From contig JAJZPQ010000008.1 of the NCBI GenBank assembly GCA_021811085.1, positions 18,498 to 82,497 on the forward strand: a DNA stretch of 64,000 nucleotides, in the 5' to 3' direction. Position numbers and translations under genes: made by a program. The notes beneath the pieces were generated by a model, which was not told where the DNA came from, did not search any database, and worked only from the letters and a program-made list of their open reading frames with translations. The first letter of the stretch is position 1. Each line of letters begins with the position of its first letter. Below are positions 44,743 to 62,445 of this stretch, piece after piece. The DNA is from Pseudomonadota bacterium (GTDB lineage Bacteria > Pseudomonadota > Gammaproteobacteria > Burkholderiales > SG8-39).

Positions 44743-44872
44743 TCGCACGCTCCAGCCCGCGGCGCACCGCGCCGACGGCGCGCGCGCGGCTGCGACTGTA
44801 CAATGCCTCCGCCCGGGTTTGGCCTCGATAGCGGCAGTCCTTCCTGTCACGTCACCGATTCCGGAGCGCGGT

Positions 44873-46012: not shown

Positions 46013-46014
46013 CC

Positions 46015-46242: not shown

Positions 46243-46284
46243 GCGCCTGTCTACGCGCGATGCTTGCAAGCGCTAGTCCCCGGC

Positions 46285-47816: not shown

Positions 47817-47840
47817 TCGCGCTCCACCTCCAGCGAGGGG

Positions 47841-48467: not shown

Positions 48468-48500
48468 TGCCAGCCGCCTATATCGAGGATGTCGAGAATC

Positions 48501-49394: not shown

Positions 49395-49951
49395 TCGCCG
49401 ATGTGGCTCTCGCGCCGCGGCCGGTGCTCTTCGTCGGCGGGCGCGAACAGACCTTCGAGCGTGCGCTCCAGCGCCTTCACCGCTTCAGGGGCTTCGATCT
49501 CCATGATCTGATCGATCACCCAGGCATGATCCTTCTCCGGGACGATTTCCAGCAGCCGGCTGCCGAAATAGCGGCGAAAGCCGAAATCGGGGCCCTCTTT
49601 TTCGTCGTAGGCGAAATCGGCGTATTCGCCGCCGCGCTGGTTGGCGAGGTCTATGAAATGGCGGCGGCAGCGGTCGGGCTCGGGTTCGACCGGCAGCATG
49701 TCGCGGTTGTCCTCTACCACCTCCGCCAGCTTCAGTGCGAGCGCGGTGGTGAACGCGATGCGCTGGTCGGCGGCGAGTGCCCGATAGGCGATGCGGTCGG
49801 CCGCGTGCAGCATGAACGCGAGGTACTCGCACACGAAATCGAAGTACTGCGTGCCGACGTCGATGTCGAATTGCGCCGCGCGCATGCGCCGGATCGCATC
49901 CTGCGACAGCTTCCAGCCGAGCATGGCGATGACGCTGGCCAGCTCGGGCAT
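49391..49951 (-). CDS. Hypothetical protein (186 aa; up to 203 aa if the start is 50002)
   Basis: ORF 49391-50002; the candidate start is ATG 49951 (MPELASVIAMLGWKLSQDAIRRMRAAQFDIDVGTQYFDFVCEYLAF...). I recognised no family. Confidence 0.5.
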   Translation of the reverse strand: MPELASVIAMLGWKLSQDAIRRMRAAQFDIDVGTQYFDFVCEYLAFMLHAADRIAYRALAADQRIAFTTALALKLAEVVEDNRDMLPVEPEPDRCRRHFIDLANQRGGEYADFAYDEKEGPDFGFRRYFGSRLLEIVPEKDHAWVIDQIMEIEAPEAVKALERTLEGLFAPADEEHRPRRESHIGE

Positions 49952-50028
49952 GGTGCGTTCGCCTGCTCCCCGGTGGAAGCGGCTGCGGATGCGGATGGCC
50001 AAGGTGCCCTGCTAGCGGGTGCGGCGCA

Positions 50029-50358
50029 CTAATATCCGCCCTTGCCGAACGGTTTGGGCAGGCCTGCGACGCGCGCGCCCTGTTTGGCCGGTCCGAGCGG
50101 GAACAGATCATATAGCGCCTTGCTGTCGCAGCCCGGCATCAGGTCGGCGATATCTTTGAGCATGTTGCGGAAATTCGGCGTCTGGCCGTGCTCTTTATAC
50201 TGGTCGCGCAGGTATTGCACGACTTTCCAGTGATCGTCGTTCAGCGTGATGCCTTCGGCCTGCGCGATAACGCGCACGGTCTCTTCGCTGTATTCGGGCG
50301 CGAGCAGATAGCCTTCCGCATCGGTTTCCAGTTCCGCGCCGTTCACCACATAAGCCAT
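50029..50358 (-). CDS. DsrC/TusE-fold protein lacking both conserved C-terminal cysteines
   Basis: 109 aa with DsrC-family blocks (LNDDHWKVVQYLRDQYKEHGQTPNFRNMLK, LFPLGPAKQGARVAGLPKP). It ends ...FGKGGY, so both CysA and CysB are absent. Confidence 0.8.
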   Translation of the reverse strand: MAYVVNGAELETDAEGYLLAPEYSEETVRVIAQAEGITLNDDHWKVVQYLRDQYKEHGQTPNFRNMLKDIADLMPGCDSKALYDLFPLGPAKQGARVAGLPKPFGKGGY

Positions 50359-50413
50359 GTTGCGATCCTCCGTTGCTGGTCAGTCGGCCGGTTCCCCCGA
50401 CCTCCAGGAGCTT

Positions 50414-50446
50414 ATTTCGAAACGAGGGGATCTATCCCCTCATGCT
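50414..50446 (-). repeat. Copy B of the AGCATGAGGGG hairpin element
   Basis: The minus-strand reading is AGCATGAGGGGATAGATCCCCTCGTTTCGAAAT, with stem GAGGGGAT/ATCCCCTC. It begins 4 nt after the tandem-TusA stop. Confidence 0.5.
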
Positions 50447-50450
50447 CCCG

Positions 50451-50945
50451 CTAAGTCTTGCGAATGAAGAACTCGTAGGTCCCCGGTGCCACTTCCTGCT
50501 TGGCGAGCAACTGGAGACCGGTCGATTTCACCCATGAATTGACGTCGTCGGGCGAGCCGGGGCAGTTGCTCATCAGGAGCAGGATTTCCCCCGCTTTCAT
50601 TCCGTCGAGCAACTTTTTGGCCTCGATGATCGGCCCGGGACAGCTGACACCGCGTATGTCCAGCCTCACATTGGCCACCGGACGTTTCGCGCCGCTGCCG
50701 CGTTTGATCGTGTATGCCACCCTGCGTCCGCCCAGCCGGTCGGTGCCGATCACCTCGTTGCCGGTGTGGCGGCTCCACGCGAACAGGTCGTCGGGCGTAC
50801 CCGGACAGTCCGATATCAGCTGCATCACCTGCCCCGGCTGCAGATCGTCGATCACATGCTTCGCGCCGAGCAGCGGCGCCGGGCAATTCAGCCCGCACAA
50901 ATCCAGCGTGACCAGGGGTTTGTCTGAATTCCTTTCCGCGCTCAT
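50451..50945 (-). CDS. Protein with two tandem TusA-like domains
   Basis: ORF 50451-50996; the likely start is ATG 50945 (MSAERNSDKPLVTLDLCGLNCPAPLLGAKHVI...). The second domain is VRLDIRGVSCPGPIIEAKKLL. Both domains keep the CPxP cysteine. Confidence 0.8.
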   Translation of the reverse strand: MSAERNSDKPLVTLDLCGLNCPAPLLGAKHVIDDLQPGQVMQLISDCPGTPDDLFAWSRHTGNEVIGTDRLGGRRVAYTIKRGSGAKRPVANVRLDIRGVSCPGPIIEAKKLLDGMKAGEILLLMSNCPGSPDDVNSWVKSTGLQLLAKQEVAPGTYEFFIRKT

Positions 50946-50995
50946 GGCAATTCCTCTCGCTTGTGCGAACGTTCCCGCGTTGAACCGCGCGCCCA

Positions 50996-51589
50996 TCAGG
51001 AGCCTACTGCTGCGGCCGATTTGTGCGGAACGAAAATTCCGCAGCCGTACTTGCGTCCGTTGCCCAGTCCCGACGCCTGCATCCTGAGCGAATCCTCGGG
51101 CGAGAGCTCATGCAGCATCAGGCTGAAACCGACGATCTCCGCTCCTTGTGTCTGCGCGCGGCGCATGTTGCCGCAAACCACCTTGCATCCTACGCTGGCG
51201 CTTTGCAGCTCTGCGCTGACGTCGCGCTGGAACCGAGCCTCATCCGGCGTCGCCGTCGTGACGAACTGCGAATACAGGGTGCCGTGGGCAAACAACGGCC
51301 GCACCTGCGCACTGCCTACCTCGACGCTGTCGCCCAGATCGAGGCGCGCGCCCGAGAGCGCAAACGACTGTTCCACCCGCTTGCGCGGCAAGCGCAGCAT
51401 GAGCCGCGCGCGGGTGCCGAGGTGGACCTCGCCTGCGACCGCGCGCGCGCCGCGGATCGGGTGTACGCCGGCGTCGGGCTCAGCCGCGAGCCAGTCGAGC
51501 CGTTCGCTCAGAAGCCGGAACAGATTCCAGCCGTGATCCGCGGGTATGCTACCACCGCGCAGCGCAAACGCCACATCGACCATGTCCAT
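50996..51589 (-). CDS. Cas6/Cmx6-like RAMP-fold protein (orphan; no CRISPR context)
   Basis: 197 aa. The C-terminal glycine-rich loop GLGNGRKYGCG fits G-h-G-x5-G-h-G of Cas6-type RAMPs. The N-terminus MDMVDVAFALRGGSIPADHGWNLF resembles my memory of the type I-MYXAN Cas6/Cmx6 family. This needs HMM or structural confirmation. Confidence 0.55.
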   Translation of the reverse strand: MDMVDVAFALRGGSIPADHGWNLFRLLSERLDWLAAEPDAGVHPIRGARAVAGEVHLGTRARLMLRLPRKRVEQSFALSGARLDLGDSVEVGSAQVRPLFAHGTLYSQFVTTATPDEARFQRDVSAELQSASVGCKVVCGNMRRAQTQGAEIVGFSLMLHELSPEDSLRMQASGLGNGRKYGCGIFVPHKSAAAVGS

Positions 51590-51592
51590 CTG

Positions 51593-51811
51593 TCAGCTGT
51601 TCTCCTGCGTCTGGGACCAGGCGAGCATCGCCTGCCCCCAGCGCGCAGCGGTATCCGGATCGATCTCGAAAATGGTAAAACGGGCGCCGCGCTCGCGGAT
51701 CCGCAGGCGCAACAGCGGCATGCCCCCGGACTCGTATTCGACCTGCACCAATTCCACCTGCTGGCCTCCGAACGGGCAGGTGAACTTGTCCAGACTCCGG
51801 GTCGTGTCCAT
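51593..51811 (-). CDS. Small hypothetical protein (72 aa), translationally coupled to the Cas6-like gene
   Basis: MDTTRSLDKFTCPFGGQQVELVQVEYESGGMPLLRLRIRERGARFTIFEIDPDTAARWGQAMLAWSQTQENS. GGAG lies 8 nt upstream of the ATG. Its stop is 3 nt before the next start. Confidence 0.5.
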   Translation of the reverse strand: MDTTRSLDKFTCPFGGQQVELVQVEYESGGMPLLRLRIRERGARFTIFEIDPDTAARWGQAMLAWSQTQENS

Positions 51812-52046
51812 GCCATGCGCTCCGCTCGATGCTGGCAGGCACTATCGCACCCGGCGCATGCCATGCAAATCACCGACTTGGATAAGGTGCGGATACTCCC
51901 TTCGGGTAGGTGCAGCATTACCCGTGAGAGTGTGCACGCCCCCCTGCACGAGTAATGGTTGAGCAGGGCGGCGCCATTTAGTATCGTCAAAAAAAAGGCG
52001 CTCCTAAGCCGAGCAAATTGCTTTTTTCCTGAATGGAGGAACACAG

Positions 52047-53342
52047 ATGGCGAAAAAACCGCATGACACGCCCAACCTGGACGCGCTCGAATCAGGCCCG
52101 TGGCCGAGTTTCGTTACCGGTCTCAAGCGTCTGGCCAAGGACAAAGACTCCGTAGTCGACCTCCTCGGTCATCTGGAACATTCGTATGCGACGAGAAAGG
52201 GTTATTGGAAAGGCGGAACGCTAGGCGTCTACGGCTATGGCGGCGGCGTCATCCCGCGCTTTACCGAGATCAAGGACGAGAACGGCAAGCCGGTGTTCCC
52301 GGACGCGGCGGAATTCCATACTCTGCGCGTCATGCCGCCCGCAGGCATGCATTACAGCACCGACATCCTGCGCAAGCTCGCAGACATCTGGGAACGGCAC
52401 GGTTCCGGGCTGATCGCCTTCCATGGCCAGTCGGGCGACATCATGTTCCAGGGCGCGACCAGCGAGAACGTACAGAAGGCCTTCGACGAGATCAACGAAG
52501 CCGGCTTCGACCTCGGCGGAGCGGGCCCCGCGCTGCGCACCTCCATGTCCTGCGTCGGCGCGGCGCGCTGCGAGCAGTCCTGCTACGACGAGGGCAAGGC
52601 GCATCGCATGGTGATCAACAGCTTCCTCGACGACATCCACCGTCCGGCGCTGCCGTACAAGTTCAAGTTCAAGTTCTCGGGCTGCCCCAACGACTGCATG
52701 AACTCGATCCAGCGCTCCGATCTGGCAGTCATCGGCACCTGGCGCGACAACATACGCACCGACGAGGCGCTGGCGAAGAAGTGGTTTGCCAAGCACGGCA
52801 TGAACGAGCTCGTGAACGACGTGGTCGCGCACTGCCCGACCAGGGCAATCCAGCTGAAAGAAATCAAGGAAGTGCGCAAGGACGCCGCCGTGTCTGCGGT
52901 CGCGGTGAACGACACGCACGCCCTGGAGATCGACAACCGCGACTGCGTGCGCTGCATGCACTGCATCAACGTGATGACCGGTGCGCTGGCGCCGGGCAAG
53001 GACAAGGGCGCGACGATCCTCTGCGGCGGCAAGCGCACGCTGAAGATCGGCGACCAGATGGGCACCGTGGTGGTGCCGTTCCAGCCGCTGCAGAACGAAG
53101 AAGATTACGAGCAGATCGTCGAACTGGGGCAGAAGATCATCGACTTCTTCGCCGAGAACGCGCTCGAACACGAGCGCACCGGCGAGATGATCGAACGTAT
53201 CGGTCTGGCCAACTTCCTCGAGGGGATCGGCCTCGACGTGGACGCCAACATGGTGAAAGCGCCGCGCTCCAACCCGTACGTCCGCACCGATGGCTGGGAC
53301 GAGGAAGTGGCCAAGATCAAGGCCAAGAAGGCAGCCGCCTAG
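52047..53342 (+). CDS. dsrA: Dissimilatory sulfite reductase alpha subunit (oxidative/reverse type context)
   Basis: 431 aa: GPWPSFVTGLKRLA..., the siroheme/FeS motif region SMSCVGAARCEQSC, CPNDC, and a ferredoxin insert CVRCMHC. RBS GGAGG. It is followed by dsrB and dsrEFH. Confidence 0.95.
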   Translation: MAKKPHDTPNLDALESGPWPSFVTGLKRLAKDKDSVVDLLGHLEHSYATRKGYWKGGTLGVYGYGGGVIPRFTEIKDENGKPVFPDAAEFHTLRVMPPAGMHYSTDILRKLADIWERHGSGLIAFHGQSGDIMFQGATSENVQKAFDEINEAGFDLGGAGPALRTSMSCVGAARCEQSCYDEGKAHRMVINSFLDDIHRPALPYKFKFKFSGCPNDCMNSIQRSDLAVIGTWRDNIRTDEALAKKWFAKHGMNELVNDVVAHCPTRAIQLKEIKEVRKDAAVSAVAVNDTHALEIDNRDCVRCMHCINVMTGALAPGKDKGATILCGGKRTLKIGDQMGTVVVPFQPLQNEEDYEQIVELGQKIIDFFAENALEHERTGEMIERIGLANFLEGIGLDVDANMVKAPRSNPYVRTDGWDEEVAKIKAKKAAA

Positions 53343-53377
53343 AGTCGGCCCACCTACAGCATGCCTGGAGATAAATA

Positions 53378-54460
53378 ATGGCTGAACCACAAAAGCAGAT
53401 GCGCAAGCCCAAGGAAACCGGGGTTCCGGACAACAAGCAATACATGCATCCGACCCTGGTGAAGAATCACGGCAACTGGAAATACCACGACCGGCCGCGC
53501 CCCGGCGTGCTGCACCACGTGTCGCACTCGGGGGACCAGGTGTGGACGGTGCGCGCAGGCACGCAGCGCCAGATGGATGTGCACACCATCAGGAAGCTGT
53601 GCGACATCGGCGATCAATACGCCGAGGGTCACGTGCGCTTTACCATCCGCTCCAACATCGAGTTCATGGTCGCCGACGAGAAAAAAGTTGCGCCCCTGAT
53701 CGAGACGCTGGAGAAAAACGGCTTTCCGGTGGGCGGCACCGGCAACTCGGTGTCGATGATGGCGCACACGCAGGGCTGGCTGCACTGCGACATCCCCGGC
53801 ACCGACGCCTCGGGCGTGGTGAAGGCGCTGATGGACGAACTGTACGACGAGTTCAGGCGCGAGGAAATGCCCAACCGCGTGCACATGTCGACCTCCTGCT
53901 GCGAGATCAACTGCGGCGGCCAGGCGGACATCGCCATTATCGTGCAGTACACCAAGCCGCCCAAGATCAACCACGATCTGGTCGCGAACGTGTGCGAGCG
54001 GCCGTCGGTCGTGGCGCGCTGCCCGGTGGCGGCGATCCGGCCGGCGCTGGTGAACGGCAAGCCTTCGCTCGAGATCGACGAGAAGAAATGCATGTGCTGC
54101 GGCGCCTGTTATCCGCCGTGCCCGCCGATGCAGATCAACGATCCCGAGCACACCAAGCTCGCGATCTGGGTGGGCGGCAAGAACTCCAACGCCCGCGGCA
54201 GGCCGACGTTCATGAAAATGGTCGCTTCCGGACTGCCGAACAACCCGCCGCGCTGGCCCGAAGTGGCCGCCGTGGTGAAGAAGATTCTGCACGTCTACAA
54301 GGAGGACGCGCGCTCGTGGGAACGCCTGTCCGACTGGGTCGAGCGCATCGGCTGGCCGCGCTTTTTCGAGAAGACCGGGCTGACGTTCACCAAGTATCTG
54401 ATTGACGACTGGCGCGGCAGCCGCGCCAATCTGAACGCGTCGACGCATATCAGGTTCTAG
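53378..54460 (+). CDS. dsrB: Dissimilatory sulfite reductase beta subunit
   Basis: 360 aa: HGNWKYHDRPRPGVLHHVS..., CCEINCGGQ, and a ferredoxin domain CMCCGACYPPCP. Confidence 0.95.
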   Translation: MAEPQKQMRKPKETGVPDNKQYMHPTLVKNHGNWKYHDRPRPGVLHHVSHSGDQVWTVRAGTQRQMDVHTIRKLCDIGDQYAEGHVRFTIRSNIEFMVADEKKVAPLIETLEKNGFPVGGTGNSVSMMAHTQGWLHCDIPGTDASGVVKALMDELYDEFRREEMPNRVHMSTSCCEINCGGQADIAIIVQYTKPPKINHDLVANVCERPSVVARCPVAAIRPALVNGKPSLEIDEKKCMCCGACYPPCPPMQINDPEHTKLAIWVGGKNSNARGRPTFMKMVASGLPNNPPRWPEVAAVVKKILHVYKEDARSWERLSDWVERIGWPRFFEKTGLTFTKYLIDDWRGSRANLNASTHIRF

Positions 54461-54484
54461 GAGAAAAGTGAACAAGGGGACCTG

Positions 54485-54549
54485 GGGAAGGGGTGGGACC
54501 CTTCCCTTCCCACCCGGGGCCACTTGTCCCGCGAGGGGACTTCCCCGCG
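54485..54549 (+). promoter_or_regulatory. Two GC-rich hairpins in the 147-nt dsrB-dsrE spacer
   Basis: GGGAAGGG-GTGGGA-CCCTTCCC (54485-54506) and CGCGAGGGGA-CT-TCCCCGCG with one bulge (54530-54549). Confidence 0.4.
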
Positions 54550-54607
54550 ACGGTGATCGAGACCTGCAAGGTCGAGATCCCACAAATCGGAGTTGCAGAA
54601 AGAAACT

Positions 54608-54967
54608 ATGAATATCGGCATCCTGGTGAACGAAGGTCCGTACACGCATGAGGCTTCGGACAGCGCCTACCAGTTCTGCAAGGCGGCGCTGGCGGCGGGG
54701 CACCAGATTCAGCGTGTGTTCTTCTATCACGACGGTGTTAACAACGCGAGCCGGCTGACCGAGCCGCCGCAGGACGACCGTAACATCGTCAACCGCTGGT
54801 CCAAGCTTGCTACCGATCACAAGGTCGATCTGGTGGTGTGCGTGGCAGCGGCGTTGCGGCGCGGCATCAAGGACGAGAATCTGGCGCCGGGCTTCCGCAT
54901 TTCGGGCCTGGGCCAGCTGATCGAGTCGAGTATCCAGGCCGACCGACTGGTTACCTTCGGCGACTGA
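54608..54967 (+). CDS. dsrE: Sulfurtransferase DsrE
   Basis: ATG 54608 within ORF 54593-54967. MNIGILVNEGPYTHEASDSAYQFCKAALAAGHQIQRVFFYHDGVNN...VVCVAAALRRG... closely parallels Allochromatium DsrE, including the active-site Cys. Confidence 0.92.
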   Translation: MNIGILVNEGPYTHEASDSAYQFCKAALAAGHQIQRVFFYHDGVNNASRLTEPPQDDRNIVNRWSKLATDHKVDLVVCVAAALRRGIKDENLAPGFRISGLGQLIESSIQADRLVTFGD

Positions 54968-54990
54968 CATACCTGGGGAGGCAAAGCGCA

Positions 54991-55362
54991 GTGGGAGAGG
55001 GTACCGTAAAGAAGATCATGTACGTGAACCGCAAGGCTCCGTACGGAACGATCTACGCGCTGGAATCGCTGGAGGTGGTGTTGATTGCCGCCGCGTTCGA
55101 CCAGGACGTAAGCCTGGTGTTCATGGACGACGGTGTGTACCAGCTGAAGAAGGGTCACCAGACCAAGGGCATCGAGGTGAAGAACTTCCAGCCCACCTAC
55201 CGCGCGCTCGACGACTACGACGTCAACAAGCTGTACGTGGAAAAGGAGGCGCTGGAAGCGCGCGGCCTGTCGGAAGCGGACATGTGCGTGCCGGTGGAAG
55301 TGAAGAGCGCGGCCGAGATCGGCAAGCTCATGGAAGAGCAGGATGTGCTGCTGAGCTTTTAA
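54991..55362 (+). CDS. dsrF: Sulfurtransferase complex subunit DsrF
   Basis: In-frame GTG 54991 after GGGGAGG (the alternative is ATG 55018). ...VKKIMYVNRKAPYGTIYALESLEVVLIAAAFDQDVSLVFMDDGVYQL. Confidence 0.85.
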   Translation: MGEGTVKKIMYVNRKAPYGTIYALESLEVVLIAAAFDQDVSLVFMDDGVYQLKKGHQTKGIEVKNFQPTYRALDDYDVNKLYVEKEALEARGLSEADMCVPVEVKSAAEIGKLMEEQDVLLSF

Positions 55363-55376
55363 GGAATAGGAGACCT

Positions 55377-55676
55377 ATGCTGCATATCGTCAACAAGTCG
55401 CCGCTGGAGCGCAACACCCTGGATAGCTGTCTCGCGGCGGCGCAGTCCGGCGCGGCGGTACTGCTGATCGAGGACGGGGTGTATGCCGCGACGCGCGGCA
55501 ACGCGGCCGAGAGCAAGCTGCGCTCGGCCTCCGAGCGGCTGGAAATTTATGTGCTTGCGCCGGATCTGGAGGCGCGCGGCATGGGGGCATCGCTGACCGA
55601 GGGTGTGAAGCCGGTCGATTACGCCGGGTTTGTCGATTTGGTGGTGAAGCACAAGAATTGCCAGTCTTGGCTGTAA
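55377..55676 (+). CDS. dsrH: Sulfurtransferase complex subunit DsrH
   Basis: ATG 55377 within ORF 55284-55676. MLHIVNKSPLERNTLDSCLAAAQSGAAVLLIEDGVYAA...VDYAGFVDLVVKHKNCQSWL. Confidence 0.88.
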   Translation: MLHIVNKSPLERNTLDSCLAAAQSGAAVLLIEDGVYAATRGNAAESKLRSASERLEIYVLAPDLEARGMGASLTEGVKPVDYAGFVDLVVKHKNCQSWL

Positions 55677-55732
55677 TCGGAGCCAATCTGGACCGCGATA
55701 GCGCAGTTGACGCGAGCGGGTGGGGTTGGGGA

Positions 55733-55765
55733 AGCATGAGGGGCACCATCCCCTCATTTTGAAAC
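55733..55765 (+). repeat. Copy A of the AGCATGAGGGG hairpin element (dsrH-dsrC spacer)
   Basis: AGCATGAGGGGCACCATCCCCTCATTTTGAAAC, with stem ATGAGGGG/CCCCTCAT (55736-55757) followed by TTTT. It ends 18 nt before the dsrC ATG. A TTGACG hexamer lies at 55707-55712. Confidence 0.5.
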
Positions 55766-55783
55766 GAGTTCAAAGGAGCGCAT

Positions 55784-56119
55784 ATGGCTGCTATCGACGT
55801 AAACGGCAAGAGCTACGAGGTCGACGAAGAGGGGTATCTGGTCAACCTGGCCGAATGGGACGAGGACGTGGGCAAGGTCCTCGCCGAAGGCGAGAAAATC
55901 GAAATGACACCGAACCACTGGGAAGTCGTCAACTTTCTGCGCGATTATTACAACGAGTTCCAGATCGCTCCGGCGGTGCGCGTGCTCACCAAGGCAATCG
56001 GCAAGAAGCTTGGACCGGAAAAAGGAAACAGCCAGTACCTGTACGAATTGTTTCCCTATGGCCCGGCAAAGCAGGCGTGCAAGATCGCCGGCTTGCCCAA
56101 GCCGACCGGCTGCATTTAG
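55784..56119 (+). CDS. dsrC: DsrC, bona fide (both C-terminal cysteines present)
   Basis: 111 aa: ...LFPYGPAKQACKIAGLPKPTGCI, with CysB at residue 99 and CysA at residue 110 (C-x10-C). Confidence 0.95.
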   Translation: MAAIDVNGKSYEVDEEGYLVNLAEWDEDVGKVLAEGEKIEMTPNHWEVVNFLRDYYNEFQIAPAVRVLTKAIGKKLGPEKGNSQYLYELFPYGPAKQACKIAGLPKPTGCI

Positions 56120-56131
56120 CCCGCTTCCGCA

Positions 56132-56170
56132 GAAAACGCAAAGGTTTTCGCAATGAAGACCTTGGTTTTC
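56132..56170 (+). promoter_or_regulatory. Tandem short hairpins in the dsrC-dsrM spacer (possible attenuator)
   Basis: GAAAAC-GCAAAG-GTTTTC (56132-56149) and GAAGAC-CTTG-GTTTTC (56155-56170). The middle GTTTTC could alternatively pair with GAAGAC. Confidence 0.3.
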
Positions 56171-56212
56171 TCCCTCGAGCCCGTGGGCAGGCTGCGCTGA
56201 AATGAGCGCGCG

Positions 56213-56950
56213 ATGACGCCGGCGACCGTCTTCTTCGCGTTGCTGCTCTATGCTGCTGCGCTGCTGGGCGCGGCCGGGCTTGTATGGCGCATCCGGGACT
56301 ATGCCCGGACGCCGGCGCCGCTCAAGATCCCGACCACGCCGGCGCCGACGACTACCGGCGGCGTGGTGCTGCGCATGCTGCGCGAGGTCACGCTGTTCGA
56401 GAGCCTGTTCAGGGCCAATCTTTGGATCTGGCTGTTCGGCTGGATGTTTCATGTGGCGCTTGCGCTGGTGCTGGCGCGCCATCTGCGCTATTTCACCCAG
56501 CCGGTGTGGTTCTGGGTGGAGTGGATCCAGCCCTTCGGAATGTACGGCGGCCTGGCTATGGTGGCCGGGCTCGCCGCGCTGTGGGCGCGCCGCTTTCTGG
56601 TCGAGCGCATCCGTTACATCTCCACCCCCTCGGATCACCTGATGCTGGCGCTGCTCCTGGGCATAGGCATCTCGGGCCTGTCGATGAAATTCCTTGCCCA
56701 CACGGACATCATCGCAGTCAAGGAATTCGCGCTCGGCCTGATTCTGTTCGACTGGCAGCCGCTGCCCGTGCATCCCGGCCTGTTCGTGCACCTGTTCCTG
56801 GTTGCCGTATTGATCGCGATCTTTCCGTATTCGAAGTTGCTGCACGCGCCGGGCGTGTTTTTCAGCCCCGGACGCAACCAGTCCGATAACCCGCGCGAGC
56901 AGCGCCATCTCGCTCCTTGGGCGGCTGCGCTGGATAAGGCAAAGGTCTGA
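56213..56950 (+). CDS. dsrM: DsrM, NarI-like dihaem b membrane subunit
   Basis: 245 aa, multi-TM, with conserved His in TM helices (WMFHVALALVLARHLRYF, HLFLVAVLIAIFPYSKLLH). Confidence 0.9.
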   Translation: MTPATVFFALLLYAAALLGAAGLVWRIRDYARTPAPLKIPTTPAPTTTGGVVLRMLREVTLFESLFRANLWIWLFGWMFHVALALVLARHLRYFTQPVWFWVEWIQPFGMYGGLAMVAGLAALWARRFLVERIRYISTPSDHLMLALLLGIGISGLSMKFLAHTDIIAVKEFALGLILFDWQPLPVHPGLFVHLFLVAVLIAIFPYSKLLHAPGVFFSPGRNQSDNPREQRHLAPWAAALDKAKV

Positions 56951-56951
56951 C

Positions 56952-58442
56952 ATGGCCGCCACCGTTACTGCGCCGCCGCTGAAACCCTATCCCGTCATCC
57001 CTATCCTCGAAGTCGGGGCGATGGGGAAGACCAAGACGTTTCCGGCGAACGCGCCGATGCAGCAGGCGCTCGGCTTTCCCGGTGAGCTGGTCGAAGACTG
57101 GCATGACAAGGCGATCTTCAAGCTGGGTGAGCTGCTGGGAAAATACCGCTCGCTCAAAGTCTATCTGGACGCGTGCGTGCACTGCGGCGCCTGCACCGAC
57201 AAATGCCATTATTTCCTCGGCACGGGCGATCCGAAGAACATGCCGGTGGCGCGCCAGGATCTGCTGCGCAAGGTTTATCGCCGCCATTTCACCTGGTCGG
57301 GGAAATGGTTTCCGAAGCTGGTCGGCGCAGAGGACCTCACCAAGGAGGTGCTCGACGACTGGTATTCCTATTTCAACCAGTGCTCGGAATGCCGTCGTTG
57401 CTCGGTGTTTTGCCCCTACGGCATCGACACGGCCGAAATCACCATGGCGGCGAGAGAGATCATGGACTCGATCGGCCTGGGGGCGAAATATACCAACGAG
57501 ATCATCGGCAAGGTGCACAAGGTCGGCAACAATCTCGGGCTTCCCGGCCCGGCGCTCGCCGACACGCTGTCCAGCATCGAGGAAGATCTCAAGGAAGAAA
57601 CGGGGCTGGACATACGCCTTCCGGTCGACGAGAAAGGCGCCGAGGTGCTGCTGGTGACGCCGTCGGCCGATTTTTTCGCCGAGCCGCACGTCTACAGCCT
57701 CATGGGCTACGCCAAGGTGTTCCACGCGGCCGGCATTTCCTGGACGCTCTCAACCCATGCCTCGGAGGCGGGCAACTTCGGCCTGTTCATCGGAAATTAC
57801 GGCCAGATGCAGAAGATCGCGACGCGCGTGCGCGAAGGCATCCTGGATCTGGGCGCAAAACGGCTGGTGGTGGGCGAGTGCGGCCACGCTTGGCGCGTAG
57901 CCTACAACTTCTGGAACACGCTGATCGGCCCGTTCGATTTTCTCGACCCGAATTATCCGGTGCCGCAGCACATCTGCGAGCTGACCTACGACCTGATCCA
58001 GCGCGGCGCGATCAGCTTCGACAAGAGCGCGAACGACCGCTACGTGGTCACGTTCCACGATTCCTGCAACGTCGCGCGCGCCTCGCGCATGGGCGGCATG
58101 CCGGGCGGCCAGTTCGAAATCCCGCGCGCCATCGTGCGCGCCGTCGCCAACAAGTTCGTCGAGATGAACCCGGAGACCATACGCGAAAAGACGTTCTGCT
58201 GCGGCGGCGGCGGCGGCCTGCTCACCGACGACCTGCTCGACCTGCGCGTGAAGGGAGCACTGCCGCGCATGGAGGCGTTGCAGGCAGTGGTCGAGTCCGA
58301 CGGCGTGAACTTCATGGCGACCATCTGCGCCATCTGCAAGGCGCAGTTCAGCAAGGTGTTGCCGTACTACAAATTCAATATGAGCATGGTGGGCGGTGTG
58401 CACCAGCTGGTGGGCAACGCGATCCGGCTCGGGCCCAAGTAA
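56952..58442 (+). CDS. dsrK: DsrK, HdrD-like CCG-domain iron-sulfur protein
   Basis: 496 aa with FeS motifs CVHCGACTDKC and CSECRRCSVFCP, and CCG motifs (TFCCGGGGG). It starts 1 nt after the dsrM stop. Confidence 0.9.
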   Translation: MAATVTAPPLKPYPVIPILEVGAMGKTKTFPANAPMQQALGFPGELVEDWHDKAIFKLGELLGKYRSLKVYLDACVHCGACTDKCHYFLGTGDPKNMPVARQDLLRKVYRRHFTWSGKWFPKLVGAEDLTKEVLDDWYSYFNQCSECRRCSVFCPYGIDTAEITMAAREIMDSIGLGAKYTNEIIGKVHKVGNNLGLPGPALADTLSSIEEDLKEETGLDIRLPVDEKGAEVLLVTPSADFFAEPHVYSLMGYAKVFHAAGISWTLSTHASEAGNFGLFIGNYGQMQKIATRVREGILDLGAKRLVVGECGHAWRVAYNFWNTLIGPFDFLDPNYPVPQHICELTYDLIQRGAISFDKSANDRYVVTFHDSCNVARASRMGGMPGGQFEIPRAIVRAVANKFVEMNPETIREKTFCCGGGGGLLTDDLLDLRVKGALPRMEALQAVVESDGVNFMATICAICKAQFSKVLPYYKFNMSMVGGVHQLVGNAIRLGPK

Positions 58443-58467
58443 TAAAGCACTTTTGAGGAGACCAAAC

Positions 58468-60411
58468 GTGTCGACCGCAACTGAGCAGTCCAGCAGCAAA
58501 CAGACCTTCCGCCGCTATCTCGAAGGCAATGAAACGTGGAAGCGCTGGCAGGACAAGATCTTCGAGGGCGACCATTCCTACAAATGCCCGACCTACATTC
58601 AGGCGGTGCCGCCCTGCCAGGGCAGCTGCCCCTCGGGCGAGGACATCCGCAGCTGGCTCAACATCGTGCGCGGCATCGAGAAGCCGCCTGCGGGCGTCCC
58701 GTGGCAGGAATACGCGTTCCGCCGGCTCACCGAGGCGAACCCGTTTCCGGCGGTAATGGGCCGGGTGTGCCCGGCGCCGTGCCAGTCCGGATGCAACCGC
58801 AACCAGGTCGAGGATTTCGTCGGCATCAACTCGGTCGAGCACTTCATCGGCGACTGGGCGCTTGCGCAAGGCCTGAAGTTCCCCCGGCCGGAGCACGAGA
58901 CGGGCAAGAAGGTGGCGATCATCGGCGGCGGCCCGGCTGGACTGGCCTGCGCCTACCAGCTGCGGCGCAAGGGCCACGCTTGCACCATCTTCGACTCGAA
59001 CAAGCACCTTGGCGGCATGATGCGCTACGGCATTCCCGGTTATCGCACGCCGCGCGACGTGCTCGACGGCGAGATCAAGCGCATCGTCGACATGGGCGTG
59101 GAAGTGCGCCTCAACACCCAGGTCGGCAAGGATGTGAGCCTGGATGAGCTGCGGCGCGACTTCGACGCCGTTTTCGTCGGCCTCGGCGCACAGTCGGGCA
59201 GCCCGCTGCCCATACCCGGCGGCGAGGCGCCGAACTGCATCGACGGCATCACGTTCCTGCGCGCCTTCAATGACGGCCGGCTCAAGCATGTAGGCCGGAG
59301 GGTCGTGGTGGTGGGCGGGGGCGACACCGCCATGGACGTCGCCGCGGTGGCGCGCCGGCTCGGCCATATCACACGCGGTCGCGAGGAGTCGGCGCCGAAG
59401 GACCCTGTCCTCGGCCAGATGGAACAGGATGTGGCCACTGCCGCGCAGCAGGAAGGTGCCGACGTACTCATCGCCTACCGCAGGACCGTCGCGGAAATGC
59501 CGGCGACCAAACACGAAGTCGAAGCCGTCACGCGTGAAGGCGTGCGCATCATGACCTGCGTCGCCCCGGTCGCGGCGGTGCTCGGCGCGGACGGACGCGC
59601 GGTCGCGCTGCGGGTGATCAAGGTCGACTGGGTGAACAAGAAAATGGTGCCGCAAGCCGGCTCCGAATTCGACATCCCCTGCGACGTGATCGTCTCCGCC
59701 CTCGGCCAGACGGTGGACTTCACCGGCCTGGAGGAATTCAAGAACGAGCGCGGGCTGGTCAGCGCGGACAAGAACTACCAGGTTGCGGCTAAGCCCGGCG
59801 TGTTCACCGGCGGCGACATCGTGCGCCCGCATCTGTTGACCACTGCGATCGGCCACGCCTGGATCGCCGCGGAAGGCATCGACCGCCATCTCATGGGCGA
59901 GCCGCTGGAAAAGCGGCCGAAGATCGATGTGCACTACTTCGACCTCGAGCGCAAGATGATTGAAAAAGGCCTCAAGATCGAGGAGGCACATGAACCGCTG
60001 CGGGGCACCTATGCTTCGGACGTCGCGGTGCACAACTACGACAACCGTTCCGACAGGTACGTGATTACGCACGAGGAGCTGTTCCTCGGCCACTTTCCGC
60101 ACACGCCGCGCAACGAGCGCCAAATCGTCCATCTGGACGCAGAGAGCGCGGTAGGCAACTTCGAGGAGCGCATCGTGGCGCTGACCGAGGCGCAGGCGCA
60201 GGCAGAGGCTGCGCGCTGCATGAGCTGCGGCCAGTGCTTCGAGTGCGACAACTGCATCGTCTATTGCCCGCAGGTGGCGGTGAAGAAGGTGCCCAAGGCG
60301 CAGGCAACCATGGGGCGCTACGTCTACACCGACTACGATCGCTGCATCGGTTGCCATATATGCATGGATGTTTGCCCGACCGGGTACATCAAGATGGGGC
60401 TGGAGATGTAG
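58468..60411 (+). CDS. dsrL: DsrL copy 1 (GltD-like NAD(P)H:acceptor oxidoreductase with C-terminal ferredoxin domain)
   Basis: In-frame GTG 58468 after GAGGAG within ORF 58396-60411; 647 aa. N-terminal Cys clusters (CQGSCPSGEDIR, VCPAPCQSGCN), FAD motif IIGGGPAGLACAYQL, a second Rossmann VVVGGGDTAMDVA followed by IAYRRT, and a C-terminal CMSCGQCFECDNCIVYCP...CIGCHICMDVCP. Confidence 0.9.
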   Translation: MSTATEQSSSKQTFRRYLEGNETWKRWQDKIFEGDHSYKCPTYIQAVPPCQGSCPSGEDIRSWLNIVRGIEKPPAGVPWQEYAFRRLTEANPFPAVMGRVCPAPCQSGCNRNQVEDFVGINSVEHFIGDWALAQGLKFPRPEHETGKKVAIIGGGPAGLACAYQLRRKGHACTIFDSNKHLGGMMRYGIPGYRTPRDVLDGEIKRIVDMGVEVRLNTQVGKDVSLDELRRDFDAVFVGLGAQSGSPLPIPGGEAPNCIDGITFLRAFNDGRLKHVGRRVVVVGGGDTAMDVAAVARRLGHITRGREESAPKDPVLGQMEQDVATAAQQEGADVLIAYRRTVAEMPATKHEVEAVTREGVRIMTCVAPVAAVLGADGRAVALRVIKVDWVNKKMVPQAGSEFDIPCDVIVSALGQTVDFTGLEEFKNERGLVSADKNYQVAAKPGVFTGGDIVRPHLLTTAIGHAWIAAEGIDRHLMGEPLEKRPKIDVHYFDLERKMIEKGLKIEEAHEPLRGTYASDVAVHNYDNRSDRYVITHEELFLGHFPHTPRNERQIVHLDAESAVGNFEERIVALTEAQAQAEAARCMSCGQCFECDNCIVYCPQVAVKKVPKAQATMGRYVYTDYDRCIGCHICMDVCPTGYIKMGLEM

Positions 60412-60486: not shown

Positions 60487-62445
60487 GTGCCGAGCACCAC
60501 CGAACAAGGCAGCGCCAAAATCACTTTTCGCCGTTTCAAGGACGGCGACGGGAAATGGAAGCGCTGGCAGGAGCAGATTTTCGATGCGGACCATTCGCAC
60601 AAGTGCCCGACCTATATACAAGCCACGCCCCCCTGCCAGGGCAGTTGCCCTTCGGGCGAGGACATCCGCGGCTATCTGAACATCGTACGCGGCGTGGAAA
60701 AGCCCCCCGCGGGTCAAACGTGGCAGGAGTATGCGTTTCACCGCCTCGCCGGCGCGAATCCGTTCCCGTCGGTGATGGGGCGCGTGTGCCCGGCTCCGTG
60801 CGAATCCGGATGCAACCGCAACGAGGTCGAGGATTTCGTCGGTATCAACTCGGTGGAGCACTTCCTCGGCGACAATGCGATCGCCAAGAATTTCAGCTAC
60901 GAGAAACCGACGCGGACTACCGGCAAGACCGTGGCAGTGATTGGCGGCGGACCAGCAGGCCTGTCTTGCGCCTACCAGCTCGCGCGCAAAGGCCACGAGG
61001 TCACCGTTTTTGATGAACATCCGGAGCTCGGCGGGATGATGCGCTACGGCATTCCGGGTTTCCGCACGCCGCGCAAGATCCTCGACGCCGAAATCCAGCG
61101 CATTCTCGACCTCGGCGTGCAGACGCGCCTGAAATGCCGCGTCGGCGTCGATATCACGATGGAGCAGATTCGCGCCGAGTACGACGCGGTGTTCCTCGGC
61201 TTGGGTGCGCAGTCGGGGCGGCCGCTTCCCTGCCCGGGCAACGAGGCACCGAACATCGTGACCGCCACCGCGTTTCTGCAGGCGTTCAACGACGGCCGCA
61301 TGCGTCACGTAGGCAAGCGCGTCGTCGTGGTCGGCGGCGGCGACACCTCGATTGACGTCGTCACGGTCGCACGGCGCCTGGGTCACATTGTGCATGCCCA
61401 CGATGCGGACCAGCCCGAGCGCGCGATCGCCAGCTATAGCGCACACGATGTCGCCGAAGTCTCTGCCAGGCAGGGCGCGGAGGTGGTGCTCACCTCGGTG
61501 TTTGCGGTCGACGGGATGCAGGCGAACAAGCACGAGGTCGAGCAGGCCACTGCCGAAGGCATCACCATCCGCGGCAGTCTGGTCCCGGTCGCGGTGGTGT
61601 GCGGCGCCGACGGCCGTGCCACCGCGCTGCGCGTGGCTAAGTGCGAAGCGAAATTTGTCGGCGGCAGGCTCGAAGTCAAGCCCATTGCCGGCACCGAAGA
61701 AGAGATACCGGGCGACCTGTTCGTCTCCGCCATCGGCCAGGCGGTGGATTTCACCGGCCTGGAAGAGTTTAACAACGGCAAGGGCGCAGTCACCGCGGAC
61801 AAGAACTACCAGGTGGCGGGCATGCCCGGCATCTTCGTCGGCGGCGATATCGTGCGGCCGAATCTGTTGACCACCGCGATCGGCCACGGCTCGATTGCGG
61901 CAGACGGCATAGACCGGTTCCTGCGCAACGAGGCGATGGAAAAGCGCCCCAGGATCGACGTGCATCATTTCGACCTGGTGCGCAAGATGGTCGAGAAGGG
62001 GCTGAAGGCGGTCGAGCAGAAACTGGAACCGCTGCGCGGCACCTGCAACTCCGACGCCGCCGTGCACAACTACGACAACCGTTCCGACCGGCATGTGATT
62101 CCGCACGAGGAGCTGTTCCTCGGCCACTTTCCCAGCGTGGAGCGCAATAAACGCAACACGATCACGCTGACCAAGGAGACCGCTCTAGGGAATTTCGACG
62201 AGCGCATCGTCGCACTCGCCGAAGCAAAGGCGCAGGCCGAGGCCAAGCGCTGCATGAGCTGCGGGCAGTGCTTCGAGTGCGACAACTGCGTGGTGTATTG
62301 CCCGCAGATTGCGGTGAAGAAGGTGCCCAAAGCACAGGCGACCATGGGGCGCTACGTGTATACCGACTACGACCGCTGTGTCGGCTGCCATATATGCGCC
62401 GACGTGTGTCCGACCGGTTACATCAAGATGGGGCTGGGTGAGTAG
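60487..62445 (+). CDS. dsrL: DsrL copy 2 (diverged tandem paralog)
   Basis: 652 aa with a GTG start after GAGGAG. It has the same domain order as copy 1. The position equivalent to YRR reads SVF (LTSVFAV). The last ~190 nt are highly similar to copy 1 at the DNA level. Confidence 0.9.
   Translation: MPSTTEQGSAKITFRRFKDGDGKWKRWQEQIFDADHSHKCPTYIQATPPCQGSCPSGEDIRGYLNIVRGVEKPPAGQTWQEYAFHRLAGANPFPSVMGRVCPAPCESGCNRNEVEDFVGINSVEHFLGDNAIAKNFSYEKPTRTTGKTVAVIGGGPAGLSCAYQLARKGHEVTVFDEHPELGGMMRYGIPGFRTPRKILDAEIQRILDLGVQTRLKCRVGVDITMEQIRAEYDAVFLGLGAQSGRPLPCPGNEAPNIVTATAFLQAFNDGRMRHVGKRVVVVGGGDTSIDVVTVARRLGHIVHAHDADQPERAIASYSAHDVAEVSARQGAEVVLTSVFAVDGMQANKHEVEQATAEGITIRGSLVPVAVVCGADGRATALRVAKCEAKFVGGRLEVKPIAGTEEEIPGDLFVSAIGQAVDFTGLEEFNNGKGAVTADKNYQVAGMPGIFVGGDIVRPNLLTTAIGHGSIAADGIDRFLRNEAMEKRPRIDVHHFDLVRKMVEKGLKAVEQKLEPLRGTCNSDAAVHNYDNRSDRHVIPHEELFLGHFPSVERNKRNTITLTKETALGNFDERIVALAEAKAQAEAKRCMSCGQCFECDNCVVYCPQIAVKKVPKAQATMGRYVYTDYDRCVGCHICADVCPTGYIKMGLGE

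Follow-up and report, generated by a model that had tools for sequence, protein, structure and literature searches.

Hairpins beside the sulfur-carrier genes of a dsr locus are very probably copies of a dispersed miniature transposable element

Recurrent hairpins in the dsr locus

The 64,000-nt stretch of DNA analysed here (the window) carries sulfur-oxidation genes of the dsr and tusA type together with an orphan Cas6-like gene. A hairpin that begins with the 11-mer AGCATGAGGGG recurs in three of its spacers, between dsrH and dsrC (copy A), between a tandem-tusA gene and a dsrC-like gene (copy B) and between a dsrE3-like gene and tusA (copy C). The sequence-only reading that drew attention to the motif counted three copies, all of them intercistronic, and this holds: exact matches lie at 42371 (plus strand), 50446-50436 (minus strand) and 55733 (plus strand), with no further site at one mismatch. 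The triplicate was rightly judged to be more than chance, as dinucleotide shuffles yield a mean of 0.03 exact matches and none of 100 shuffles reaches three. The conserved pairing of GAGGGG with CCCCT(C/T) is equally real, GAGGGG-N4-8-CCCCT occurring at these three sites alone (0.12 expected), and copies A and B are indeed identical at 26 of 33 positions, with four of the seven differences in the loop. Within the window a covariance model of the family, run with filters off, matches copies A, B and C only. The features are listed under the interpretation developed below, namely that the element is a miniature inverted-repeat transposable element (MITE):

42357-42359, plus strand: stop codon TGA of the dsrE3-like gene; read on the minus strand it is TCA, the triplet that flanks copy C on the right
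42360-42439, minus strand: copy C, a complete MITE antisense to the dsrE3-like gene and tusA (covariance model)
42372-42360, minus strand: right terminal inverted repeat of copy C
42395-42373, minus strand: hairpin 2 of copy C
42410-42396, minus strand: linker of copy C, CTGGTTTAGACGAGC
42437-42411, minus strand: hairpin 1 of copy C, GGCCATCTCGG..CCGAAATGGCC
50408-50450, minus strand: copy B, a 5'-truncated MITE copy in sense orientation (covariance model, 57 bits)
50423-50442, minus strand: hairpin 2 of copy B, TGAGGGGAT-AG-ATCCCCTCG (fold)
50996-51589, minus strand: orphan Cas6/Cmx6-like gene (Pfam PF09559, E 3e-53; TIGR02807)
54461-54604, minus strand: tentative antisense relative, decayed, of the right half of the element in the dsrB-dsrE spacer; contains a nested palindrome
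55677-55771, plus strand: copy A, an old, decayed MITE copy in sense orientation that fills the dsrH-dsrC spacer (covariance model)
55718-55782, plus strand: covariance model match of copy A (62.7 bits)
55736-55757, plus strand: hairpin 2 of copy A, ATGAGGGG / loop CACCAT / CCCCTCAT, 8 bp (fold)
55758-55771, plus strand: remnant of the right terminal inverted repeat of copy A, TTTGAAACGAGTTC, earlier read as a T run and GAAAC

Copy A reaches from just after the dsrH stop codon TAA (55674-55676) to just before the dsrC Shine-Dalgarno sequence AAAGGAG (55772-55778). An orthologous copy is present in 10 of 10 clade genomes, and copy A is an ancient insertion common to the whole clade. Its hairpin 2 folds at -12.8 kcal/mol, compared with -4.3 kcal/mol for shuffles (z -4.1), while the reverse complement of its right-hand remnant, GAACTCGTTTCAAA, is similar to the family's left ends, GAACCCGTTGCAAA.

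Copy B follows directly on the stop codon TAG of the tandem-tusA gene (50453-50451) and is made up of a linker remnant, hairpin 2 and the right terminal inverted repeat TTTCGAAATAAGCTC; folding of its 65-nt context gives -30.2 kcal/mol (z -4.3). In the nearest relatives (L141 and L142) this site is occupied by a full copy with both hairpins, whereas the window copy is without hairpin 1; in more distant relatives the site is empty. Copy B inserted later than copy A, is common to the closest relatives and has lost hairpin 1.

The assertion that the hairpin is always sense-oriented fails with copy C, which is complete on the minus strand, where the covariance model scores 44 bits versus 38 on the plus strand, and which aligns over its full length with 58 other copies. 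Hairpin 1 and the linker CTGGTTTAG stand 5' of the core on the minus-strand reading only, in the order of a full copy; the 11-mer also appears on the plus strand because the core is nearly palindromic. Copy C is inserted at the stop codon of the dsrE3-like gene.

The related hairpin that had been pointed out in the dsrB-dsrE spacer (54530-54549) does exist, but it gives no match to the family model R1 with filters off at E<=10. It lies inside the tentative decayed relative at 54461-54604. Read on the minus strand, the orthologous dsrB-dsrE spacers comprise CTCTGATTTAGGGGA, then CAAGGGGG..CCCCCTTG and then ..CTCCTAG, ending on the dsrB stop codon. Because model R1 is silent here, membership of this sequence in the element family rests on such a reading of the letters and is proposed tentatively.

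Anatomy of the full copies and their target sites

The 59 full copies that were aligned are ~80-100 nt long, have no open reading frame and share one order of parts: a left terminal repeat, hairpin 1, the linker CTGAtTTAGGGG, hairpin 2 and a right terminal repeat. The terminal inverted repeats are imperfect and ~16 nt long. The left one, GAGGCCATTTCAGAAT or a subfamily variant, doubles as the 5' arm of hairpin 1, and the right one reads wTTGAAAy..GCTC or, in variants, another sequence complementary to the left end. Left ends are identical to the reverse complement of right ends at 8.9 of 16 positions on average, compared with 4.0 for shuffled sequence and 12-14 in the best copies. The two ends of a given copy match each other better than ends taken from different copies (permutation p < 0.0002), and where the left end differs the GAAAY tail changes with it to GTTAC or GTTAG, according to the subfamily. 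Hairpin 2 is highly conserved (AGCAYGAGGGGA-nnnn-TCCCCTCRT). The sequence of hairpin 1 differs between subfamilies, with at least six different stem sequences among the copies, and in 57 of the 59 copies the hairpin forms at least 7 bp (-15.3 versus -5.7 kcal/mol); it was assessed by folding each copy rather than by column counts of covariation, because MAFFT sets the subfamilies in different registers.

The copies are flanked by a 3-bp target duplication, TAA or TTA and more broadly TNA. Flanking triplets combine as TAA/TAA in nine cases, TTA/TTA in five and discordantly in one (Fisher estimate ~0.002). The triplets at both ends are identical in 14 of 59 copies, with 7.6 expected (permutation p 0.007), the duplications having decayed in many of the others. 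Since these variable triplets agree at both ends, a target duplication is indicated. An open frame of at least 80 codons ends on the flanking triplet, as its stop codon, in 24 of the 59 full copies; stop codons thus often serve as the insertion target. It is the preference for TNA that would bring the element into intercistronic gaps: in a genome of 64% G+C the TNA triplets outside genes would largely be stop codons, and the element would therefore land right after genes. Frequent insertion at stop codons is what makes it look 'intercistronic by design'.

Dispersal and insertion polymorphism

A strict 25-nt core pattern, AGCAYGAGGGGANNNNTCCCCTCRT, was searched in metagenomes and matches at least 120 stretches, a figure that counts stretches across metagenomes and not copies per single genome. 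Among the matches listed, 119 of 120 do not lie beside dsr, tusA or cas6 genes, L075 alone carrying cas6, tusA and dsrC-like genes. A 65-nt covariance model scores up to 72 bits in the core-matching stretches. The neighbours of the dispersed copies include genes for acyl-CoA dehydrogenase, an ABC ATPase, TrpRS, ScpA, GcvT and PhaC, and on other contigs of the source metagenome the core has different surroundings, including different hairpin-1 sequences. In orientation relative to the flanking genes, 43 copies are sense, 30 antisense, 12 convergent and 10 divergent. A restriction of the motif to sulfur loci, as envisaged by the sequence-only reading, is not supported by this picture; scatter through unrelated intergenic regions, which that reading itself had named as counting against it, is what was observed.

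Comparison of close relatives reveals the same mobility at the level of single spacers. Those between dsrF and dsrH, between DUF6967 and cas6, between TauD and CMD/Rieske and between tusA and the dsrC-like gene are filled with the element in some close relatives and empty in others, and the dsrF-dsrH spacer is occupied by two different subfamilies. The element is ~6x denser around the dsr/cas6 locus (~1 per 10 kb, 14 loci) than around randomly found copies, for which the comparison set has ~11 extra copies in 645 kb. Random insertion alone does not account for this local enrichment.

Identity of the element and its mobilisation

With terminal inverted repeats, target duplication and filled versus empty sites in hand, we consider it very probable that the three window hairpins are copies of one lineage-specific MITE. 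The family is an ordinary dispersed repeat rather than a sulfur-gene-specific control element, because its copies are scattered through unrelated genes of an uncultured lineage; the 11-mer is identical in copies A, B and C owing to common descent of repeat copies, not to a sulfur-specific function. It belongs to uncultured sulfur-oxidising Burkholderiales-type MAGs and is without a match in Rfam, PLSDB or IMG/VR: the window has no Rfam match at gathering score, seven loci with full copies have none over the element at E<=1, an 81-nt full copy finds nothing among PLSDB plasmids by blastn, and the 25-base core pattern is absent from IMG/VR viral contigs. No name for the repeat turned up in the papers searched. 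At E<=1, Rfam also returned an unrelated weak Bp2_287 match beside one element.

The closest likeness is to MITEs derived from IS5-type insertion sequences (IS), which are likewise small (80-100 nt) and non-coding, occur in many dispersed copies with filled and empty sites, and have imperfect terminal inverted repeats starting with GAG and a 3-bp flanking TWA duplication. We take GAG termini and a 3-bp TNA/TWA duplication to be characteristic of the IS1031/IS427-like groups of IS5-type IS in ISfinder. Unlike such MITEs, the window element has an unusually conserved internal hairpin 2 and is frequently inserted at stop codons, and its parent IS was not found. A search of the ~1.1 Mb of fetched loci (1.08 Mb) for paired ends 0.5-2.5 kb apart that enclose a gene recovered only neighbouring MITE copies and no autonomous parent. 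Since no parent with these terminal repeats turned up there, we infer the mobilising enzyme, which would be a DDE transposase encoded by an IS5-type IS at another place in the genome.

The main value of identifying the element lies in correction, as a hairpin repeated beside sulfur-carrier genes invites regulatory and Cas6 stories, yet it is a mobile repeat. Annotators of dsr loci are advised to mask this MITE repeat ahead of searches for regulatory motifs.

Possible co-option of copy A

Descent from a MITE does not preclude a later function, and an added claim rather than an alternative is that the hairpin of copy A, and perhaps that of copy B, is now under selection as an intercistronic mRNA hairpin: a 3'-5' exonuclease barrier, a processing site or a weak attenuator that would uncouple dsrC levels from those of dsrEFH. 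This is possible, if on balance rather unlikely. Hairpins transcribed inside operons may in principle act in any of these ways, and REP/BIME and Correia elements do affect mRNA as exonuclease barriers, processing sites or weak attenuators. The classic example of a hairpin that governs how much upstream relative to downstream gene product is made is the REP in malE-malF. Correia elements of Neisseria (CREE/NEMIS) are co-transcribed with adjoining genes, and their folded RNA is processed, with altered mRNA stability. As MITEs beside genes they resemble the window element, and copy A may have a comparable effect on mRNA; they differ in length (~100-155 bp), in their 26-bp terminal repeats and TA duplication, and in their unrelated sequence.

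Among the window copies it is copy A alone that shows signs of being kept for an RNA role. Compensatory changes in orthologous spacers had been proposed as a diagnostic, and they are found: hairpin 2 folds in 10 of 10 orthologous dsrH-dsrC spacers (-11 to -18 kcal/mol, z -1.5 to -4.9), its stem having changed on both sides to ACGGGGGG/CCCCCCGT in L010, GCGAGGGA/TCCCTCGC in L140 and CGCGGGGGA/TCCCCTGCG in L006, while the rest of the element decays. Hairpin 1 has decayed at this site in ~7 of the 10 genomes (z -0.6 or weaker), and pairwise identity is 0.63 in hairpin 2 versus 0.46-0.48 in the rest of the spacer. It is this retention of hairpin 2, with compensatory changes and beside a decayed hairpin 1, that makes co-option of copy A conceivable, and at least one copy may therefore not be merely neutral. 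On the other hand, stems built of a G-run and a C-run are easily kept and easily aligned, and the sister loci L013, L015 and L016 have dsrH-dsrC spacers of 27-55 nt without the hairpin, so that dsrC expression needs no hairpin in general.

A role as terminator or attenuator finds little encouragement in the sequence itself. The T runs behind copies A and B had been taken as the sign of a leaky attenuator; they are instead part of the right terminal inverted repeat, and no copy passes a terminator scan set to detect G+C-rich stems with a U tract behind them (at least 5 T in 8); the scan yields 13 terminator-like sites in 41000-57000, all of them at other places than the copies. Copies A and B resemble intrinsic (Rho-independent) terminators in having some U residues behind a G+C-rich hairpin, but these are 3-4 U only, and the family consensus after the stem is RTwTTG, with no U tract. 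No RNA run contains the locus. The metatranscriptome contigs that match, from the same study and from a soil run, extend over parts of dsrAB, dsrE and dsrC (92-99% identity), span neither the dsrH-dsrC nor the tusA-dsrC-like spacer and carry no end information. The dsrC-proximal copy, kept in every relative examined while the rest decayed, is a testable candidate for a co-opted mRNA hairpin.

Comparison with REP-type repeats

The element could conceivably be a REP/BIME-type repeat moved on single-stranded hairpins by a RAYT (a Y1, IS200/IS605-like enzyme), instead of a MITE with terminal inverted repeats and a DDE transposase, a reading that we regard as improbable. Its attraction is that the element is a two-palindrome mosaic in intergenic DNA, which we take to be the build of BIMEs and RIMEs, that what is conserved in hairpin 1 is its structure rather than its sequence, as expected if an enzyme recognises the hairpin, and that the ~1.1 Mb of fetched loci yielded no DDE parent. 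E. coli REP/BIME and Rhizobium RIME sequences are indeed two-palindrome mosaics in operon spacers. They are, however, tied to RAYT and have neither terminal inverted repeats nor target duplication, whereas the window element has both: its ends are inverted repeats of each other and its TAA and TTA flanking triplets agree at both ends in all cases but one. Y1 elements are not known to make a target duplication. A genome-wide REP family had been considered as one possible role, and the dispersal that it implies is what the data show.

Cas6 and the sulfur genes

The orphan Cas6-like protein belongs to the Cas6/Cmx6 family over its full length (TIGR02807, 153 bits versus a cut-off of 98.85). Its closest solved structure is a type I-B Cas6 (8fcj_B, E 2e-22), with which it shares the GxHPI motif and the glycine-rich loop GxGxxRKxxCGIFVP. 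This lends some colour to the suggestion that it binds and cuts hairpin 2 of sense-oriented copies at the stem base, as Cas6 cuts a CRISPR repeat, and so processes dsr and neighbouring transcripts, as do the position of the element directly 5' of cas6 in 9 of 16 genome loci and the local density of copies. The hairpin also shares features with CRISPR repeats cut by Cas6 (type I-B / I-MYXAN), namely a short G+C-rich stem, a 4-6 nt loop and then xUUGAAAy, and the locus includes a Cas6-family gene; hairpin 2 with wTTGAAAy presumably resembles the 3' part of many Cas6-type repeats, which we treat as a lead only.

The partnership nevertheless appears very unlikely and is unsupported, because the Cas6-like gene keeps identical synteny in loci without the element: in L002 (DUF6967-cas6 junction), L005 and L012-L016, either the junction or the whole locus lacks it. 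Unlike CRISPR repeats, the element is not arrayed, has no spacers and lies mostly far from cas6, nearly all of the strict-core stretches among the matches listed being elsewhere and in both orientations. As the right terminal repeat, the GAAAY tail changes together with the left end between subfamilies, and the tail TTTTGAAAC/TTTCGAAAT is ruled out on this ground both as a CRISPR handle and as a terminator U-run. The window contains no CRISPR array, and the loci hold at most 2-5 irregularly placed copies. Among the papers searched, none connects Cas6 with DsrC or TusA. Both cas6 and the element occur in the same uncultured lineage and may co-occur at genome level; the evidence argues against an obligate partnership. 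Just as hard to credit is the combined scenario in which the Cas6-like protein, conserved beside the dsr genes, would cleave or bind hairpin 2 of sense copies and the mobile repeat would seed 'Cas6 sites' into operons, its dense and mostly sense copies around dsr and cas6 setting the carrier-to-enzyme ratio.

Least credible of all is an operator or RNA motif specific to sulfur-carrier genes, as once proposed: the three window copies do lie within 14 kb of sulfur-oxidation genes, each beside tusA, dsrC or the dsrC-like gene, but the element is dispersed through unrelated loci, its positions in these very spacers are insertion polymorphisms between close relatives, copy C is antisense, and L012-L016 are without it in the same spacers. 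As a separate observation, a small hairpin of the GCCGG/CCGGC type, considered as another potential target of Cas6, lies ~40 nt upstream of the dsrC-like start codon in 13 of 18 loci and is thus not universal.

A hairpin repeated in the sulfur gene region

The window (G+C 61-69%), whose source organism occurs in mine-drainage metagenomes, carries dsrABEFHCMK and two dsrL-like genes on the plus strand and, on the minus strand, an operon divergent from dsrA. The 11-mer AGCATGAGGGG occurs there exactly three times, at 42371 (+), 50446-50436 (-) and 55733 (+), with no additional site when one mismatch is allowed; exact matches average 0.03 per dinucleotide-preserving shuffle, and not one shuffle in 100 reaches three. 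The pattern GAGGGG-N4-8-CCCCT is confined to the same sites (0.12 expected), which lie in the dsrH-dsrC, tandem-tusA-dsrC-like and dsrE3-like-tusA spacers (gene calls by G+C per codon position and Pfam). Copies A and B are identical at 26/33 positions, and the loop holds four of the seven differences. The three hairpins described by the sequence-only reading are therefore real, correctly placed and not due to chance. A covariance model seeded with 16 copies and run with filters off over the whole 64 kb recovers only these three.

42439-42360, minus strand: copy C, a complete element in the dsrE3-like-tusA spacer
50450-50408, minus strand: copy B, lacking hairpin 1 and starting directly 3' of the tusA stop TAG
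55677-55771, plus strand: copy A, an old insertion in the dsrH-dsrC spacer
47841-51811, minus strand: operon of DUF6967, Cas6/Cmx6-like, tandem TusA, DsrC-like, 203-aa protein, TauD-like and CMD/Rieske genes

The hairpin as part of a probable MITE

In the related cas6-dsr loci the 11-mer is part of a longer conserved unit, and inspection of the 60 nt upstream shows that in most copies the conserved hairpin is preceded by another, which is more variable. The consensus of 59 full copies reads cTAA|GAGGCCrTTTCAGAATTAcCGAAAyGGCC-cCTGAtTTAGGGG-AGCAYGAGGGGAnnnnTCCCCTCRT-wTTGwAAyaaaCTC|TAAg. Hairpin 1 has at least 7 bp in 57/59 copies (-15.3 kcal/mol vs -5.7 for shuffles) and at least six distinct stem sequences; in hairpin 2, 91% of the stem cells of the seed alignment are paired, and one pair alternates between U-A and C-G (six copies each). 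The first 16 nt match the reverse complement of the last 16 at a mean of 8.9 positions (shuffled 4.0; best copies 12-14). These terminal inverted repeats match better within a copy than across copies (permutation p < 0.0002), so that the right end varies from one subfamily to another: GAAAT or GAAAC accompanies the left end GGCCATTTC or CCGTTGCAAA, GTTAC accompanies CCGTAACAA, and GTTAG GCCTAACGG.

Identical triplets flank 14/59 copies (7.6 expected, p 0.007), and where both triplets are TAA or TTA, 14 of 15 copies are concordant (nine TAA/TAA, five TTA/TTA, one discordant). In 24/59 copies an open frame of 80 codons or more stops on the flanking triplet itself, and in 40/59 the end of a frame this long lies no more than 9 nt away; it is because the element lands on stop codons that copies appear intercistronic. 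The anatomy is that of a MITE, a small mobile repeat, with a TNA/TWA target.

The model finds 26 distinct sites: besides the three in the window there are 23 across related loci L001-L011, with none in L005 or L012-L016. Positions vary between genomes: nine loci carry the element at the DUF6967-cas6 junction, at times in two copies, and others carry it between dsrH and dsrC, dsrF and dsrH, tusA and dsrC-like, or TauD and CMD/Rieske genes, or 3' of CMD/Rieske. When orthologous spacers are aligned, close relatives differ in which sites are filled and which are empty, and in L004 the DUF6967 stop TAA itself forms the left flank.

Filled and empty sites in orthologous spacers (L numbers, related loci)
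dsrF-dsrH: empty in the window, L007, L009, L010 and L013; filled in L002 and L006 (one subfamily) and L011 (another)
DUF6967-cas6: empty in the window, L002 and L013; filled in L004, L007, L009 and L010
TauD-CMD/Rieske: filled in L009 only
tusA-dsrC-like: filled sense in the window, filled antisense in L001 and L003, empty elsewhere

The five MITE features examined (small size, scattered copies, inverted repeats at the ends, a duplicated target and polymorphic insertion) are all present, and the element is probably a further MITE family, with no Rfam family and no match in the plasmid and viral-contig searches run. No autonomous parent IS with its ends (paired 0.5-2.5 kb apart) was found in the ~1.1 Mb of fetched loci; its GAG ends and 3-bp TNA/TWA duplication look like those of IS5-type elements, for example the IS1031 and IS427 groups. 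For a transcribed copy, the nearest functional analogues are Correia elements and REP/BIME.

A second small palindrome (e.g. GGGGAAGGGGTGGGACCCTTCCCTTCCCAC) recurs within the loop of hairpin 2 or of its relative (L001 2697-2793; L003 1640-1738; L006 3207-3298 and 7032-7144; window ~54490-54525), and this loop may be a favoured landing site for another tiny repeat.

Dispersal beyond sulfur loci

The strict 25-nt core AGCAYGAGGGGANNNNTCCCCTCRT occurs in at least 120 stretches of JGI metagenome contigs (chance estimate about one), and among those listed only L075 encodes cas6, tusA and dsrC-like (tblastn with all sulfur-region proteins of the window). Stretches other than L075 score up to 72 bits with the full 65-nt model including flanks. 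Ten copies adjoin genes for acyl-CoA dehydrogenase, phosphotransferase, ABC ATPase, AMP-binding enzyme, ScpA, TrpRS, amidohydrolase, GcvT, hydrolase and PhaC, and the listed copies are oriented 43 sense, 30 antisense, 12 convergent and 10 divergent relative to flanking genes. Other contigs of the source metagenome itself also carry the core, in flanks that differ and that include typical hairpin-1 sequences. The TrpRS has its nearest matches in 'Betaproteobacteria bacterium RBG_16_64_18 / RIFCSPLOWO2' MAGs, the uncultured lineage of the cas6-dsr loci, so the repeat is lineage-specific, not locus-specific. Near dsr/cas6 (14 loci) there is ~1 copy per 10 kb, against ~11 further ones in the 645 kb surrounding copies found at random, a local excess that random insertion alone does not account for; 24/26 copies near dsr/cas6 are sense, but independent insertion sites number only ~7 sense and 2 antisense. 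Of the earlier interpretation, the sequences stand; a sulfur-specific role is not supported, scatter outside sulfur loci being the very outcome that had been named as contrary to it.

Copies B and C and a possible relative in the dsrB-dsrE spacer

Copy C consists of hairpin 1 GGCCATCTCGG..CCGAAATGGCC, linker CTGGTTTAGACGAGC, hairpin 2 GTGAAGGGG..CCCCTCATG and right end CTCAAACAAACTC, all on the minus strand, and is flanked on the right by TCA, the reverse complement of the dsrE3-like stop codon TGA. It is therefore antisense to its neighbour genes, contrary to the claim that the hairpins are always sense-oriented; even so, the palindromes remain foldable in the mRNA (-45.8 kcal/mol over 106 nt, z -4.4). 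In L141 and L142, the nearest relatives (Cas6 92% identical), a full two-hairpin copy occupies the copy B site, where ACTTAG is followed directly by AAACCGCTGCAAAATGAATTTTGCAGCGACTGATTAGG; copy B is thus that insertion minus hairpin 1, apparently through a deletion whose endpoints we infer to be the stop-codon TTAG and the linker TTAG.

The dsrB-dsrE spacer (54461-54604) appears to contain an antisense relative of the right half of the MITE, with the same linker CTCTGATTTAGGGGA and a variant hairpin CAAGGGGG/CCCCCTTG, terminating on the dsrB stop TAG. It is present in the orthologous spacers of L002, L004, L006, L007, L009, L010, L011 and even the distant L013; the version in the window has decayed. 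The related hairpin reported at 54530-54549 does lie inside it, but the unfiltered covariance model gives no match there.

Possible co-option of copy A

Copy A is common to all ten clade genomes examined (window, L002, L004, L006, L007, L009, L010, L011, L137, L140) and also occurs in L141; sister loci L013, L015 and L016 lack it, with dsrH-dsrC spacers of 27-55 nt. Hairpin 2 can fold in every orthologue (-11 to -18 kcal/mol, z -1.5 to -4.9), with compensatory changes in its stem, while in ~7/10 genomes hairpin 1 folds no more stably than shuffled sequence does. Pairwise identity is 0.63 in hairpin 2, 0.46-0.48 in the remaining spacer and 0.77 at dsrC four-fold sites. By this differential retention, the check for compensatory changes proposed earlier is mildly positive at copy A, and the pattern fits, but does not prove, a co-opted mRNA hairpin ~15-35 nt upstream of the dsrC ribosome-binding site. 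Against this, stems made of G/C runs are easily maintained, the sister clade does without the hairpin, and none of the window copies is a canonical terminator. The dsrC-proximal copy may be a passenger or may have been co-opted. The element is neither a CRISPR repeat, nor an intrinsic terminator, nor a member of an Rfam family.

The Cas6-like gene

The Cas6/Cmx6-family gene at 50996-51589 (-) (Pfam E 3e-53; TIGR02807 153 bits) is an orphan, with no CRISPR array within the 64-kb window. Its product has more than 1000 homologues, has type I-B Cas6 8fcj_B (E 2e-22) as its closest solved structure, conserves the GxHPI motif and glycine-rich loop and, on these sequence grounds, is a genuine family member. 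A Cas6-alignment scan of GTDB representative genomes yielded 16 loci, all from uncultured Burkholderiales/Betaproteobacteria MAGs, with the same synteny on both sides of cas6 down to 43% Cas6 identity, and cas6 stands beside dsr in every locus fetched (L001-L016, L137, L140, L141, L144). The speculation that this protein is the partner of the hairpin is highly improbable: cas6 keeps its position in the element-free loci L005 and L012-L016, the element lies overwhelmingly elsewhere and in both orientations, and its CRISPR-handle-like tail is the terminal repeat, so that the tests run came out against it. A literature search returned no reported link between Cas6 and DsrC or TusA; an orphan Cas6 kept beside dsr is of interest in its own right.

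Other features of the region

The DsrC-like protein (50029-50358, minus) ends in ARVAGLPKPFGKGGY (window DsrC: CKIAGLPKPTGCI); it lacks both C-terminal cysteines of DsrC and therefore cannot serve as a classical DsrC trisulfide carrier. A second DsrC-like gene follows the first in L014 and L015. A small G+C hairpin separate from the MITE lies at ~50378-50400 (-), ~40 nt upstream of the dsrC-like start codon; this GCCGG-5 nt-CCGGC hairpin (CGCCG..CGGCG in distant loci) precedes the gene in 13/18 related loci and is not universal.

The tandem dsrL-like genes (58396-60411 and 60487-62445, plus), ~2.0 kb apart, are 71-84% identical in DNA over long stretches, and both are kept in related loci. The 263-aa gene at 43905-44696, whose product has no Pfam or NCBIfam match, contains a 180-nt tandem unit (x2.1, 78% matches) at 44034-44414 (+), so that a 60-residue module is duplicated within the protein. 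Long direct repeats at ~5200-10600 (+), spaced 3083-3095 nt apart and 71-79% identical, probably indicate two tandem paralogous large genes.
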